Positions 6,098 through 25,644 of a stretch of DNA of 32,195 bases are shown piece after piece. Source of the DNA: a virus (taxonomy: Duplodnaviria > Heunggongvirae > Uroviricota > Caudoviricetes). The notes below the pieces were generated by a model. The model saw only the letters and a program-made list of their open reading frames with translations, had not been told where the DNA came from and ran no database searches. The translations under genes and the position numbers were made by a program. The stretch spans positions 1 to 32,195 of the IMG/VR virus record IMGVR_UViG_2563366972_000002. One strand, given 5' to 3'. The stretch's first letter is position 1. Each line of letters starts with the position of its first letter.

Positions 6098-7093
6098 ATG
6101 ACTACTAAGCCAATGAGTCGACTATATGAAAAAATCAGCAAGGCGGGGTTTAGCCGTTCATTTATACGCAAAGTCTTACCTTCATGGTGGGACGACAGCC
6201 TAGCTGATACACCTTCAGGTAAGCAGTACGCTAGCCTTCATTTGGCTCGTGTTTTTAGTTTGTCTCCAGAAAGTCTCAAGGATGGTTCTGAATCTGCGTC
6301 TTTCAACCTTGGTGGAAATCATCGCTTTAAACATCGTGTAAATCTTGGTGAGGAAGACCTGAATGTTGCTACTGCCGTTGCATATTCTGCGGCGAGGATT
6401 GTAGCAGAGAATTTCAGTATCCCGTTTAATCCAAACGCAGAACTTAATTGGCAGGCAGTGAGGGATAAACTGCTCAGCGATAAAAAGTGGGTGGATTTGG
6501 CTTCTCTGATTGGTTTTTGCCATTCGTTAGGCATTCCTGTTGTCTACATTAAGAACTTTCCAACGGGTGCGGCAAAAATGGCTGGCCTTGCATTAAGTGT
6601 ATCTGGTAGGCCAGTAATTGTTTTAACCCAAGCTAAAACTCATGGATTTATGCTATTTGATTTGGCTCATGAGCTTGGTCATATTGCACTAGGCCATCTC
6701 AATGATCTCAATGGGGGGGTTCATGTTGATCGCAAAATTGAAGCGCAGTCTACTAACAATCTTGAGGTGGCAGCTAACAAATATGCCTTTGGTTTGATTG
6801 GTGGAAAAGAGACTTTGAGAATAGCACCTACAAGGGGCTATCTCACAGGTGAAAAATTGGCTAGAGCTGCGCTAGCATATGGTACACAGCATTGCATAGA
6901 GCCAACTCATGTAGCTTTGAACTATGGTCACAATTTAGGGCACTGGGGAGTGGCTGTTAACGCTGTTAAAAGTATTTGCGTGGGACAACCGACGGACCAA
7001 TCTTTAGCTAGGCAGCTCATGATGGATGCCATCGATCACGAAAATATTAATGACGACGACTTAGAACTTTTAACGACGCTATGTGGGGTTTAA
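6098..7093 (+). CDS. ImmA/IrrE-like (M78-type) HEXXH zinc metallopeptidase with about 130-aa N-terminal extension; cargo gene 1
   Basis: 331 aa. HELGH at residues 191-195 (6668..6682), followed by H200, preceded by the GIPV...G...RPVIVL...FMLFDLAHELGHIALGH context typical of ImmA/IrrE peptidases. GGAGG RBS 5 nt upstream. Lower GC (about 43-45 percent by eye) than the phage backbone. Lies where P2 carries tin/old. Confidence 0.6.
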   Translation: MTTKPMSRLYEKISKAGFSRSFIRKVLPSWWDDSLADTPSGKQYASLHLARVFSLSPESLKDGSESASFNLGGNHRFKHRVNLGEEDLNVATAVAYSAARIVAENFSIPFNPNAELNWQAVRDKLLSDKKWVDLASLIGFCHSLGIPVVYIKNFPTGAAKMAGLALSVSGRPVIVLTQAKTHGFMLFDLAHELGHIALGHLNDLNGGVHVDRKIEAQSTNNLEVAANKYAFGLIGGKETLRIAPTRGYLTGEKLARAALAYGTQHCIEPTHVALNYGHNLGHWGVAVNAVKSICVGQPTDQSLARQLMMDAIDHENINDDDLELLTTLCGV

Positions 7094-7096
7094 GTA

Positions 7097-7738
7097 GTGA
7101 TCGTTCTTTCAGACAATGATGTCATTTTGAAACTAGCGCAGTGTAATTTACTCCGTTACCTTCCTGAGATTTTGGAAGAGGATCCGCGAGGCATCTATGT
7201 TAGTCCGACGGCTCGTTTTCAATTATTACCGCGCAATACTGATAAAGCCATTAAGAAGTGCGGTAGTGTGGCTATTTACGAAAATGTGGAAAGATTTCTA
7301 GGAAGTGTGCAAGTTATTGATGAAATCAGAAACGATGATTTGCTGATTAAACTTGGTGAGATACCACACATAGATGTCGGCGAACAACAGCTTTTAGCTG
7401 CATGCGTTGAGCAACCAGGAGCTTTGTTCATGACAGGTGACCGTCGATGTTTGCAGGCTGTGATGGACAATCAGACTATTGTCGCTACGGTTCATGCGCG
7501 TCTAATTGACTCAGTAATAACCTATGAGAGTGCTCTTTTGCTTTCTGTTCGCGTTTTAGGATTTGAGACTCTATATCAACAACTACAAACGAACCCGAAT
7601 CCAGATGCAATGCTGAGGATGGCTATGCGTTCTCGCAGCTCAGAAGATGTTTGTGGCTGCTTCTTTTCTTATACGCGCCCTGTATACGATTATCTGGCCT
7701 TTAAACAACATTTACCGGATCGTGCTTGGTTGCTTTAA
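7097..7738 (+). CDS. Putative PIN-like nuclease; cargo gene 2, partner of the metallopeptidase
   Basis: 213-aa ORF with a GTG start 3 nt after the gene 1 stop and in the same frame; GGGG 8 nt upstream. Acidic residues spaced like a PIN fold: N-terminal VLSDNDVILKL (D6/D8), E26-E28, HIDVGEQQLLAAC (D93), ALFMTGDRR (D115). The fold assignment is inference from motif pattern only. Confidence 0.4.
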   Translation: MIVLSDNDVILKLAQCNLLRYLPEILEEDPRGIYVSPTARFQLLPRNTDKAIKKCGSVAIYENVERFLGSVQVIDEIRNDDLLIKLGEIPHIDVGEQQLLAACVEQPGALFMTGDRRCLQAVMDNQTIVATVHARLIDSVITYESALLLSVRVLGFETLYQQLQTNPNPDAMLRMAMRSRSSEDVCGCFFSYTRPVYDYLAFKQHLPDRAWLL

Positions 7739-22054: not shown

Positions 22055-22582
22055 ATGCAGCATTTGATAAATATAATGGCAGGTAATCCAAAAACGGTTG
22101 AACAATATCAATTGACAAAAGACTTTGATGTTGTCTGGTTTTTTTCAGAAGATGGTAAGAACTGGTACGAAGAACAAAAGTATTTTGCTGATGACACGCT
22201 AAAAATAGCGTACGACAAAGATAATATCATCCGCTATGTGGAAAAGGATGTGACAGCTATCAGACCGGATGGATTAAGTGTTGTTGAAGTGGCGGATATT
22301 ACTGCTAACCGACGGGCGGACATTTCAGGGAACTGGATGTTTAAGGACGGTACAGTGATTAAACGCATTTATACGGCAGAGGAATTGCAGCAGCAGGCAG
22401 AAAATCGGAAAGCCAGACTTCTTGCAGATGCTGAATCCGTGATTTTGCCGCTGGAGCGCGCGGTCAGACTGAACATGGCAACAGATGAGGAGCGCAGCCG
22501 ACTGGAAGCATGGGAACGCTACAGCGTTCTGGTCAGTCGTGTGGATCCTGCAAATCCTGAATGGCCGGAAATGCCGCAATAA
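22055..22582 (+). CDS. G: Tail fibre assembly chaperone
   Basis: 175 aa immediately downstream of H. Confidence 0.8.
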
Positions 22583-22887
22583 GTTGTATGAACTCTGGTG
22601 TGAGCTTACATACCTATAGAACAGAGTAAAGCCTAATCTGACAGTCCGCTCTGTGCCAGAAGCGGACATATCTTCAGATATCCTTATGGTGAAAAAACAC
22701 AGCCATTAATTATTGTTTAATATTAATAATCAAAGTATGTTATAGTTTCATTTGCAAGGAAAATCTCATCAGAAAAATGCTTTATCACAGTGCCAAAAGT
22801 GGATAATCTATCACCCATTCATCTAGAGTTCGTTAGGTTTCTTTATCATTCGATTCAATCTTCTTATACAAGGAGTAGTTAGTCTCT

Positions 22888-24162
22888 ATGAGTGTCATAA
22901 AAGATTTTTTAGAACAATATAGCAAGCAGTATGATTACTATTCTGAGTTGGCAAAAATAGGCTCAAGCTTGCTCGAGCAGGAATTGGAAAAGAGAGGGAT
23001 TAAAGCCATAGTTTCATTCAGAGCTAAGCGACCAGACCGCTTAGAACAAAAACTTAATCAAAGAAATGAAAAGTCAGCATATGCAGATGTTGCTAATATA
23101 TATGAAGATATTGTCGACCTGGCCGGTGTTCGAGTAGCTTTATATTTTCCAAAAGATAGAGAAGTAGTTGATGAAACTATTAATTTTTTATTTAATGTCC
23201 GGAAAAAGAAAAACTTTCCAGAAGCATCTTATAAACCTAAATTTGAAAAAAGGTTTTCTGGTTACTGGGCATCTCATTATCGTGTCAATTTGAAAAACTC
23301 TAACCAAAATAATAAGCGTTACGAAAGTGCATTATTTGAGATTCAAGTAGCATCGGTTCTTATGCATGCCTGGTCCGAAGTCGAACATGACCTTGTTTAC
23401 AAACCTCTAGCAGGCGATTTATCTGAAGAGGAACTTGCAATTCTAGATGAGATTAATGGATTAGTGCTTACTGGCGAAATAGCTCTTGAAAGACTTCAAA
23501 AAGCCATAACAAAAAGAACTAAAGAAAAAGATAATATTTCAAATAGATATGAGTTAACGAGTTTTATAACCAACTCACTAAATAAGAATTATATAAGCAA
23601 ACTTAAATTAGGTGATACTAAAATTTTATTTAATTATCTCAAGGGTAATTCTAGCATAAGCGTCAGTGAACTTTCTGAATATTTGCGTAAAATTAATCAA
23701 AGTGAAAAAGAAACAATCACAGATCAATTGCTTCTTATGTTTATTAATGATTCATACAAGAGCGTTGGAGGTAATTTAAAACTTTCAAATTATTTCAAAC
23801 GTGCTCTTGGGGAACATAAGGATGTATCAGGGTTTGAGTCATTTGTTAAAACATGGATTTTACTAGAAAAAGCAGTCTCTTTAATTCATAATCAAAACAA
23901 TCGCCAGCACAAAAAATTCTTCACCGCAAAATTTGAGCCATTGGTTTCTGACGGAGTGCTGACGCGAGAAGAGTCATTTGAACTAAACTATTTTAAAAGA
24001 ATCAGAAATAACTTACTTCATGGTATAGAAACACCTAACGATGAAGAGCTAAACGAAATGTTCGTTAGATTGTTAGCATTAACTGAGAAGGTTATCTCAT
24101 CTATTAAAAATGATGATGATAAAGCTAAATTGCTCAAAGAATTAAAGACGTTGAGTGATTAA
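22888..24162 (+). CDS. RelA/SpoT-family nucleotidyltransferase (toxSAS-like) with Cys-free C-terminal domain; CapRel-like fused toxin-sensor candidate at the Z/fun locus
   Basis: 424 aa. N-terminal half carries the RelA/SpoT synthetase-fold motifs in order: SFRAKRPDRLEQKL, DIVDLAGVRVALYF, GYWASHYRV, EIQVASVLMHAWSEVEHDLVYK. C-terminal about 230 aa is K/N-rich, has no cysteine, and includes RIRNNLLHG. AAGGAG RBS. About 28-30 percent GC by eye, against about 50 percent in the flanking phage genes. Confidence 0.65.
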   Translation: MSVIKDFLEQYSKQYDYYSELAKIGSSLLEQELEKRGIKAIVSFRAKRPDRLEQKLNQRNEKSAYADVANIYEDIVDLAGVRVALYFPKDREVVDETINFLFNVRKKKNFPEASYKPKFEKRFSGYWASHYRVNLKNSNQNNKRYESALFEIQVASVLMHAWSEVEHDLVYKPLAGDLSEEELAILDEINGLVLTGEIALERLQKAITKRTKEKDNISNRYELTSFITNSLNKNYISKLKLGDTKILFNYLKGNSSISVSELSEYLRKINQSEKETITDQLLLMFINDSYKSVGGNLKLSNYFKRALGEHKDVSGFESFVKTWILLEKAVSLIHNQNNRQHKKFFTAKFEPLVSDGVLTREESFELNYFKRIRNNLLHGIETPNDEELNEMFVRLLALTEKVISSIKNDDDKAKLLKELKTLSD

Positions 24163-24330
24163 AATATGAGATAAAAATCATTGTCATAGACTAATTATTG
24201 TTTTGTATTCAGAGCCTGAATCTAAGCAGAATGATATGTCCGCTCCTCGCTCAAAGCAGACTGTCAGATTTGATAGCTTTTGGGCTAAGTAAATTGTCAG
24301 TCGGAAAATGAGTGAGTACAAATCAGGACT

Positions 24331-24356
24331 GGCGGGCGAATTGCCCGCCTTTTCTT
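24331..24356 (+). terminator. Rho-independent terminator downstream of the toxSAS-like gene
   Basis: GGCGGGC(24331..24337)-GAAT-GCCCGCC(24342..24348) followed by TTTTCTTT. Confidence 0.7.
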
Positions 24357-24453
24357 TATCTGTTGTTTCATCCACTGACCAGCCAGGTCAAATAGCGTCT
24401 CATGCTCTGCACAACAGAAAATAGTTGCACCCATTAACCACGGAGTTAAACGG

Positions 24454-25644
24454 ATGAGTGACTATCATCACGGCGTGCAGGTGCTGGAGATTAACGACGG
24501 CACCCGCGTCATTTCCACCGTATCCACGGCCATTGTCGGCATGGTCTGTACGGCCAGCGATGCGGATGCGGAAACCTTCCCCCTCAATAAACCGGTGCTG
24601 ATTACCAATGTGCAGAGCGCAATTGCAAAGGCCGGTAAAAAAGGCACGCTGGCGGCGTCGTTACAGGCCATCGCTGACCAGTCAAAACCGGTCACCGTTG
24701 TTGTGCGCGTGGAAGACGGCACCGGCGACGACGAGGAAACGAAACTCGCGCAGACCGTTTCCAATATTATCGGCACCACCGACGAAAACGGCCAGTACAC
24801 CGGACTGAAAGCCCTGCTGGCGGCAGAGTCGGTTACCGGCGTTAAACCGCGTATTCTCGGTGTGCCGGGGCTGGATACCAAAGAGGTGGCTGTTGCACTG
24901 GCATCAGTCTGTCAGAAGTTGCGCGCTTTCGGGTATATCAGTGCATGGGGCTGTAAAACCATTTCCGAGGTGAAAGCTTACCGCCAGAATTTCAGCCAGC
25001 GTGAGCTGATGGTCATCTGGCCGGATTTCCTCGCATGGGATACGGTCACCAGTACCACCGCCACCGCGTATGCCACCGCCCGTGCGCTGGGTCTGCGCGC
25101 TAAAATCGACCAGGAGCAGGGCTGGCATAAAACGTTGTCCAATGTCGGGGTGAACGGTGTTACCGGCATCAGCGCCTCTGTATTCTGGGATTTGCAGGAG
25201 TCCGGCACCGATGCTGACCTGCTTAATGAGTCTGGCGTCACAACGCTGATTCGCCGCGACGGTTTCCGCTTCTGGGGTAACCGTACCTGCTCTGATGACC
25301 CGCTGTTCCTCTTTGAAAACTACACCCGCACCGCGCAGGTGCTGGCCGACACGATGGCTGAGGCGCACATGTGGGCGGTGGACAAGCCCATCACCGCAAC
25401 GCTGATTCGCGACATCGTTGACGGCATCAATGCCAAATTCCGTGAGCTGAAAACAAACGGCTATATCGTGGATGCGACCTGCTGGTTCAGCGAAGAATCC
25501 AACGATGCGGAAACCCTCAAGGCCGGAAAACTGTATATCGACTACGACTATACACCGGTGCCTCCTCTTGAAAACCTGACCCTGCGCCAGCGTATTACCG
25601 ATAAATACCTGGCAAATCTGGTCACTTCGGTTAACAGCAATTAA
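24454..25644 (+). CDS. FI: Tail sheath protein
   Basis: 396 aa, the P2 FI size; GGAG RBS. Confidence 0.9.
   Translation: MSDYHHGVQVLEINDGTRVISTVSTAIVGMVCTASDADAETFPLNKPVLITNVQSAIAKAGKKGTLAASLQAIADQSKPVTVVVRVEDGTGDDEETKLAQTVSNIIGTTDENGQYTGLKALLAAESVTGVKPRILGVPGLDTKEVAVALASVCQKLRAFGYISAWGCKTISEVKAYRQNFSQRELMVIWPDFLAWDTVTSTTATAYATARALGLRAKIDQEQGWHKTLSNVGVNGVTGISASVFWDLQESGTDADLLNESGVTTLIRRDGFRFWGNRTCSDDPLFLFENYTRTAQVLADTMAEAHMWAVDKPITATLIRDIVDGINAKFRELKTNGYIVDATCWFSEESNDAETLKAGKLYIDYDYTPVPPLENLTLRQRITDKYLANLVTSVNSN

Follow-up and report, generated by a model that had tools for sequence, protein, structure and literature searches.

The sole gene between the tail-fibre assembly gene G and the sheath gene FI of a P2-type prophage is predicted to encode a 424-aa fusion of a RelA/SpoT-type pyrophosphokinase (RSH SYNTH) domain with a C-terminal HEPN domain. 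This makes the gene a promising candidate for a single-gene anti-phage system that is new and not a copy of CapRel. In the reading that we prefer, at a probability of roughly 0.55, the product is a self-contained dual-enzyme anti-phage protein of abortive infection, with the RSH domain as the primary effector and a C-terminal region that restrains the RSH domain and adds an RNase activity in most lineages. The window, i.e., the whole stretch of 32,195 nucleotides that was analysed, is an almost complete P2-type Peduovirus prophage, whose structural genes are 95–97% identical to those of Yersinia phage P37, vB_YpM_46 and Escherichia phage P2_AC1. The features of the locus are as follows.

22055–22582: G (tail-fibre assembly), Caudo_TAP match with an E-value of 1.5e-34.
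22584–22672, no strand: left inverted repeat of the P2 Z-region, ungapped core 22635–22672, aligning with the 'left inverted repeat' of AJ512680.
22717–22746, plus strand: weak promoter-like site (TTAATA, 18 nt, TG-TATAGT; 9/12 match), about 140 nt upstream of the ATG.
22870–22875, plus strand: Shine-Dalgarno-like AAGGAG, 12 nt 5' of the ATG, read directly from the sequence.
22888–24162 including the stop codon, plus strand: whole gene of the predicted 424-aa RelA/SpoT (RSH SYNTH)-HEPN fusion.
22888–23442, plus strand: predicted RelA/SpoT-type pyrophosphokinase (SYNTH) domain, residues 1–185.
23116–23118, 23263–23265 and 23338–23340, plus strand: codons of D77, Y126 and E151, respectively.
23443–23823, plus strand: seven-helix middle region, residues 186–312, a candidate hinge or sensor.
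23824–24159, plus strand: predicted HEPN domain, residues 313–424.
24004–24021, plus strand: Rx4H motif R373-N-N-L-L-H378.
24233–24325, no strand: right inverted repeat of the P2 Z-region, ungapped core 24233–24270, corresponding to the 'right inverted repeat' of AJ512680 and AJ512683.
24331–24359, plus strand: intrinsic terminator GGCGGGC-GAATT-GCCCGCC with a T-run, hairpin 24331–24349, upstream of FI.
24454–25644: FI (sheath), with tail sheath domain matches.

The ORF at 22888–24162 (plus strand, 424 aa) is the single sizeable one in the G-FI interval, in agreement with the original prediction made from the sequence, and no separate antitoxin ORF accompanies it, as had also been stated. Its start codon was confirmed by the homologues, all of which start with MSVI or MKVI, and the AAGGAG hexamer bears out the claim that the gene has a ribosome binding site of its own. 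The ORF has a GC content of 0.325 and the interval between the boundary repeats one of 0.32, compared to about 0.56 in the structural backbone, and GC3 is 0.26 in the fusion ORF versus 0.68 in FI. Thus, the description of the gene as AT-rich cargo swapped into the G-FI (Z/fun) hotspot held. The gene shows the marks of P2 Z/fun cargo, namely the position between G and FI, Z-region inverted repeats on either side and an atypical AT-rich composition. To the extent that the record AJ512680 (for Nilsson et al. 2004) and PMC9519451 describe it, P2 fun(Z) and other Z-region cargo likewise consist of one or two AT-rich genes at the same site between the same flanking inverted repeats; the fusion protein itself is unrelated to these. 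The locus of fun in P2 has been described as a second defence-enriched hotspot of P2 (Vassallo et al. 2022, PMC9519451).

Residues 1–185 have the sequence of a bona fide RSH SYNTH domain with an intact predicted active site. The Pfam family RelA_SpoT (PF04607) matched residues 45–172 with 51.6 bits and an E-value of 1.4e-13, well above the gathering cut-off of 27 bits, so that the profile search proposed as a check on the N-terminal part was positive; a RelA_SpoT match was also obtained for 22/22 homologues scanned. As had been claimed, the motifs stand in canonical order: RAKRPDR (45–51), DLAGVRV (77–83), GYWASH (125–130), EIQ (151–153), HAWSEVEH (160–167) and YK (171–172). All of them are invariant across the alignment of the 22 homologues. 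Among 86 deep representatives, R45, D77, G125-Y126, H130 and Q153 are each present in 86/86, and K47 and E151 in 85/86. The catalytic set is present, with the Mg2+-coordinating Asp (DxxGxR), the acceptor-stacking Tyr (GY), the Glu of EIQ and the ATP-binding R-x-K, and the N-terminal domain has the SYNTH fold. By motif position, D77 and Y126 match D90 and Y128 of FaRel2, two residues that experiments have shown to be indispensable for toxicity and tRNA labelling. Since, according to Kurata et al., no signature in the sequence tells tRNA-targeting enzymes from nucleotide-targeting ones, the acceptor substrate is not deducible from sequence.

By sequence, the PDB entries closest to the protein are housekeeping small alarmone synthetases (SAS), which are non-toxic. 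RelQ/RelP (YjbM/YwaC) gave the best sequence and fold matches for residues ~40–181 and share the same catalytic motifs. These are single-domain housekeeping proteins of ~200–230 aa, whereas the fusion protein carries a 240-residue C-terminal extension with a predicted HEPN domain and is encoded in a phage hotspot. In PADLOC-DB v2.0.0, no system model matched over the full length; the only match was a weak, N-terminal one to the candidate PDC-S33 with an E-value of 1.5e-8, covering residues 23–163 and positions 49–175 of the 349 of the profile.

The last ~110 residues are predicted to form a HEPN domain whose catalytic motif, Rx4H, is conserved. First, this part of the protein contains an Rx4-6H motif in which a polar residue follows the Arg, as HEPN proteins do, and R373-N374-x-L-L-H378-G379 is invariant in the alignment of the 22 closer homologues. 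Second, it has the all-alpha fold of HEPN domains: residues 157–424 are predicted to be all-helical, with no strand after residue 156, and the C-terminus matches HEPN proteins. Profile searches against HEPN families gave mixed results. The single 424-aa protein itself gave no match to a HEPN family in Pfam at E<=1; among the 22 homologues, the C-terminal part matched three independent HEPN families, HepT-like in 16/22 (best E-value 3.7e-6), DUF4145 in 12/22 and HEPN_Swt1 in 8/22, mostly below gathering scores. Some homologues carry a precomputed HepT-like match, and distant members of the family match HepT-like or RiboL-PSP HEPN families, again mostly below gathering scores. HEPN RNases require dimerisation, and metal-independent RNA cleavage by such a dimer would be a plausible output of this domain.

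The original prediction had described a fused multi-domain protein whose C-terminal half might hold an unknown sensor of the CapRel kind. The first part stood, while the second gave way to the predicted HEPN domain with its Rx4H motif. The prediction had also drawn on the lack of cysteines to set the C-terminal half apart. The 424-aa protein indeed contains none, yet the argument does not discriminate, since the pseudo-ZFD of CapRel also lacks them.

CapRel is defined by this pseudo-ZFD, a three-stranded antiparallel beta-sheet with a connecting helix, and by a YXXY neutralisation motif (PMC9712102). In contrast to this C-terminal beta-sheet, the fusion protein has an all-helical bundle followed by the predicted HEPN domain with Rx4H, and a search of residues 186–424 for YxxY found none. 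Thus, a C-terminal architecture of the CapRel kind was not borne out. The family profile, searched against PDB chains, retrieved RelQ, RelP and YjbM and no CapRel chain (7ztb/9erv) even at E<=10, and the sequence of the fusion protein is nearer to RelQ/RelP than to CapRel. With 424 aa, it is also longer than the solved CapRel chains of ~343–344 residues, and a further conserved catalytic centre sets it apart from CapRel (e.g., CapRel-SJ46; Zhang et al. 2022, PMC9712102).

CapRel is activated when it directly binds a capsid protein of the phage, and it pyrophosphorylates tRNA. The fusion protein might follow the logic of CapRel all the same, with the RelA/SpoT domain as the sole effector, a tRNA pyrophosphokinase, and the C-terminal half as a non-catalytic antitoxin or sensor of phage proteins that happens to have a HEPN fold. 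We regard this as doubtful. Besides the missing beta-sheet and YXXY motif and the profile search, the conservation of the putative RNase centre speaks against it: among the 86 deep representatives, whose mean column identity is 32%, R373 is kept in 84/86, N374 in 76/86 and H378 in 78/86, and such conservation across phyla would hardly be expected unless the residues serve catalysis or bind a specific ligand. The broader notion of a defence protein that resembles toxSAS, is fused and regulates itself is still plausible, with an architecture unlike that of CapRel and a further catalytic domain.

Homologues were searched over 5.8 billion proteins. Gammaproteobacteria, Bacteroidota and Calditrichia yielded full-length homologues (~420 aa), with identities as low as ~52%. 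An exhaustive HMMER search with residues 185–424 alone yielded 258 clusters at 50% identity, nearly all of them 410–450 aa long with the match starting at ~185; longer variants still have RelA_SpoT upstream. A split two-gene version, suggested by C-terminal proteins of 250–280 aa, was rejected: these all start with MHAWSEVEH at the internal M159 and come from partial contigs, and they are therefore truncated gene calls. Thus, the RelA/SpoT-HEPN fusion is obligate in the family.

Both centres are maintained in the family to different degrees. An intact NTase signature is seen in 84/86 deep lineages, compared with ~76/86 for the HEPN dyad. In ten lineages the HEPN dyad is degenerate (H to D, F, T, Q or Y, or R to K or N), and 10/10 of these retain the full NTase signature. 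The NTase deviates in only two lineages (K47N and E151G), and the HEPN dyad is intact in both. These counts indicate that both centres are under purifying selection, the NTase independently of HEPN catalysis.

This pattern bears on a further alternative, in which the protein is a fused toxin-antitoxin (TA) system resembling type VII (cf. HepT/MntA and FhepTA), with the HEPN RNase as the toxin and the RelA/SpoT NTase as an antitoxin in cis that acts by ATP-dependent covalent modification or by blocking dimerisation. If the NTase merely restrained HEPN, lineages with a dead dyad would not be expected to keep a perfect NTase site, as they do in this family, unlike in HepT/MntA. The enzymes differ as well. 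HepT/MntA and the fused FhepTA employ a minimal NTase, an AMP transferase, and the fusion protein has a RelA/SpoT-type pyrophosphotransferase; in FhepTA/HepT, AMP is accepted by a Tyr next to the RNase motif, and this Tyr becomes oligoAMPylated (PMC7641770, PMC13000451). No such Tyr stands beside the motif here: H378 is followed by G-I-E-T-P, the family reads RNxLLHG(I/V)ETP, and position 380 is I, V, T, K or R across the family, never a conserved Tyr. No Pfam match to MNT families was obtained for the fusion protein or the 22 homologues. The linker of FhepTA has 3–5 residues, whereas a helical middle domain of ~125 residues separates NTase and HEPN in the fusion protein. RSH enzymes pyrophosphorylate the ribose 3'-OH, and to our knowledge no protein acceptor is known for them. 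On this evidence, a TA system of the type VII kind is quite unlikely. In its proposed way of working, the fusion is most like a self-contained module of the toxSAS/CapRel type or of the NTase-HEPN type, yet it lacks the features that define either. A likeness of another sort exists to AbiA (PDB 8oz7), an abortive-infection polymerase that likewise has a C-terminal HEPN domain; its N-terminal enzyme is a reverse-transcriptase-like DNA polymerase and not an RSH pyrophosphokinase.

The distribution of the family is extremely patchy, with 469 of ~185,600 species genomes containing a member. These genomes are dispersed among Enterobacterales, Vibrionales, Neisseria, Bacteroidota, Lachnospiraceae and Paenibacillus, as well as Cyanobacteria, Actinomycetes, Acidobacteriota, Chloroflexota and Spirochaetes. 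The cluster of the 424-aa protein at a level of at least 90% has members in E. coli, Klebsiella, Serratia, Dickeya, Rahnella, Mangrovibacter and Zymobacter, annotated with generic names throughout. Thus, the family has spread horizontally, with transfer across genera. The identical protein was found at the same G-FI position of P2-like prophages in 8/8 of the draft-assembly places listed, which include two tail-fibre variants. Among 5,426 complete E. coli genomes, the fusion gene occurs in only three records, and ~1,050 of these complete records have the same flanks around other cargo (such as Shedu, DUF4145, DUF6615 or HTH with acetyltransferase). None of 50,697 phage genome records encodes a close homologue.

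The gene is solitary and has no conserved partner. In Serratia, Vibrio and Rufibacter and at 61 species-representative loci, the neighbours differ in identity, strand and spacing. As candidates for a conserved partner or antitoxin gene, the only recurrent neighbours at the 61 loci, an ABC-F ATPase (9 loci) and endonuclease III (6 loci), were rejected; they reflect synteny and no functional module, because both are restricted to related Lachnospiraceae. In the Lachnospiraceae, the gene lies amid housekeeping genes whose synteny is conserved, a setting less usual for defence genes. About one tenth of the neighbours within two genes on either side are of defence or mobile-element type, including HamA (twice), DUF4145 (three times), AriA/AAA_21 (three times), MADS, a McrB-like gene and integrases; the remainder are housekeeping genes.

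A role outside defence was weighed, namely that of an alarmone synthetase for lysogenic conversion, whose (p)ppGpp would tune host physiology such as stress tolerance or prophage maintenance and whose HEPN domain would be a nucleotide-binding regulator. It would fit the solved structures that match best, the source annotation 'GTP pyrophosphokinase', the chromosomal, housekeeping-like synteny of some clades and the label 'putative lysogenic conversion protein' given to the cargo in GenBank records of the Z-region. We consider it very improbable in view of the fused RNase-type domain with its conserved catalytic dyad, the patchy distribution with cross-genus transfer, and the presence of Shedu and other defence genes in the same hotspot elsewhere.

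We infer an anti-phage role for the fusion protein, together with its toxicity, substrates, auto-inhibition, trigger and sensing domain. In the preferred reading of a dual-enzyme abortive-infection protein, the protein would be auto-inhibited in the lysogen by intramolecular packing of the C-terminal region, and upon infection by another phage it would shut down translation. The RSH domain would provide its primary, indispensable activity, an ATP-dependent 3'-pyrophosphorylation directed at tRNA CCA ends or at adenine or guanine nucleotides, as in toxic small alarmone synthetases. The NTase is taken as the primary activity because the lineages with a dead HEPN dyad all keep it. The HEPN domain would contribute additional RNA cleavage in most family members and may also serve as a regulatory or sensing module; a purely passive C-terminus is disfavoured, since RNxxxH is conserved in ~88% of the lineages. 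The full-length AF2 model is of moderate confidence (pTM 0.58), and the most conserved segment (161–200) is poorly modelled in it, so that interdomain geometry and auto-inhibition are without structural support.

Rather than acting side by side, the two enzymes could form a closed circuit within one protein, either through a nucleotide switch or through blocking of RNA 3' ends; we judge this unlikely. In the first version, an alarmone-like nucleotide made by the RelA/SpoT domain would serve, in cis and in trans, as the switch that activates or inactivates the HEPN RNase. This would amount to a second-messenger immune system in one protein, possibly guarding against phage-encoded alarmone hydrolases. 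In the second version, the RSH domain would pyrophosphorylate RNA 3' ends after HEPN cleavage and phage 'healing' and would thereby block religation by phage repair enzymes. Either version, if true, would be a mode of action undescribed for RSH or HEPN proteins.

No paper describing a RelA/SpoT-HEPN fusion was found in a literature search with little coverage of subscription journals, and neither a PADLOC model nor a name in the source exists for it; the novelty is thus provisional. The fusion is unmentioned in the 2013 survey of HEPN proteins, the RSH classification of 2020, the 2017 paper on polyvalent proteins, the paper on Tn7 cargo and two papers on P2 hotspots. 'RelS-RelI', considered as a relevant precedent, proved to be a RelE-like toxin and was set aside. 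Toxic RelA/SpoT enzymes and HEPN RNases are among the main translation-targeting weapons of bacterial immunity, known separately and here obligately joined. The partnership of NTase and HEPN, so far known for minimal NTases (type VII TA), would extend to the alarmone-synthetase branch of the Pol-beta superfamily. With both sites conserved and the NTase outlasting the HEPN dyad, the family raises the question of which domain is the effector and which the regulator. As the only cargo of a P2 hotspot in Enterobacteriaceae whose link to defence is documented by experiment, the gene is a single-gene defence candidate that can be tested directly in E. coli.

Finally, the boundaries of the cargo were analysed. 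The original prediction had assigned the gene a promoter and a terminator of its own, and neither assignment survived. The scan for promoter-like sites found 5 where 6.7 ± 3.2 were expected from shuffles, i.e., consensus matches at chance level and no enrichment. The strong terminator hairpin at 24331–24349 lies in the backbone and is shared with P2-like prophages that carry other cargo; its stem is conserved in the prophage of NCTC9088, which has Shedu as cargo. The inverted repeats are imperfect, with cores of 38 nt at 87% identity and a longer extent when gaps are allowed. They were considered as the ends of a new mobile cassette, a notion that was dropped: they are the inner part of the annotated Z-region repeats and also occur with other cargo. 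Since repeats and terminator are shared with prophages of other cargo, and the repeats are annotated in AJ512680 and AJ512683, both belong to the known backbone of the P2 Z-region. When the locus is aligned with a P2 prophage that has Shedu as cargo, homology extends across the left arm and then breaks off; it sets in again within the right arm and persists past the terminator as far as FI.

Proteins at least 90% identical to the RelA/SpoT (NTase)-HEPN fusion protein encoded by the window were found in E. coli, Klebsiella, Serratia, Dickeya, Rahnella, Scandinavium, Mangrovibacter and Zymobacter palmae. The last of these belongs to the Halomonadaceae. This distribution implies that the gene was transferred across families very recently. 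The low GC content of the gene (32%) matches none of these hosts.

The gene cassette at 22644..24261 of the window was also present in E. coli YY76-1 (locus L001, 6001-7618) with 99.4% identity. This copy does not lie within any P2 prophage, and E. coli T16R likewise carries the cassette outside any P2 prophage. In YY76-1, the cassette is flanked on one side by a GIY-YIG gene and a capsid-fragment remnant of a different prophage and on the opposite side by a LysR fragment and the pao operon. Of both inverted-repeat arms bounding the Z-region cargo, i.e., the P2 hotspot between G and FI, only the inner ~29 nt were present. The homology between the two loci breaks symmetrically, each time inside one arm, which suggests that the arms are involved in cassette movement and do not serve solely as flanking sequences for homologous exchange. 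Outside the cargo, the stem of the terminator upstream of FI (24331..24349) was fully conserved between the window and the P2-like prophage of NCTC9088 (L008), which carries a different cargo, while the loop differed (GAATT in the window vs. TGGTT in NCTC9088).

Cargo types of the Z-region hotspot are found together elsewhere, since a DUF6615 protein is encoded immediately upstream of the window-protein homologue in Rufibacter (L007, 4100-4903), and in E. coli VTB96775v the P2 Z-region holds a DUF6615 protein as its alternative cargo. Among 50,697 phage records, the sole match was a distant relative annotated as hypothetical (27.6% over residues 72-271; PQ189320.1, 6778-7317) in Vibrio phage 10N.261.45.F7_PE002A. 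This Vibrio element is very small; at 8.1 kb, the record is shorter than expected of a phage genome and possibly represents a satellite.

Within the protein family, residues 161-200 (window 23368..23487) were the most conserved stretch (conservation index of 0.74-0.78), with the pattern AWSEVEHDLVYKP..G.LS..E.AILDEINGLVL.GEIALERLQ. The same residues showed the lowest confidence of the full-length AF2 model (pLDDT <50 at 161-176 and 191-194). This combination would be consistent with a role of the segment, where the NTase meets the helical region, as a conformational switch or as an interaction surface.

The other P2 hotspot (tin/old position), which is bounded by gene A and the portal gene and has a GC content of 0.43-0.45, contained two adjacent ORFs:

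6098..7093, + strand, 331-aa protein with an ImmA/IrrE-type Peptidase_M78 domain (domain match 1.7e-7)
7097..7738, + strand, 213-aa protein without a match in Pfam or PADLOC

These ORFs are possibly a second defence cargo of the prophage; the 331-aa protein gave weak PADLOC matches to capP, RmrA and PD-Lambda-2_B.
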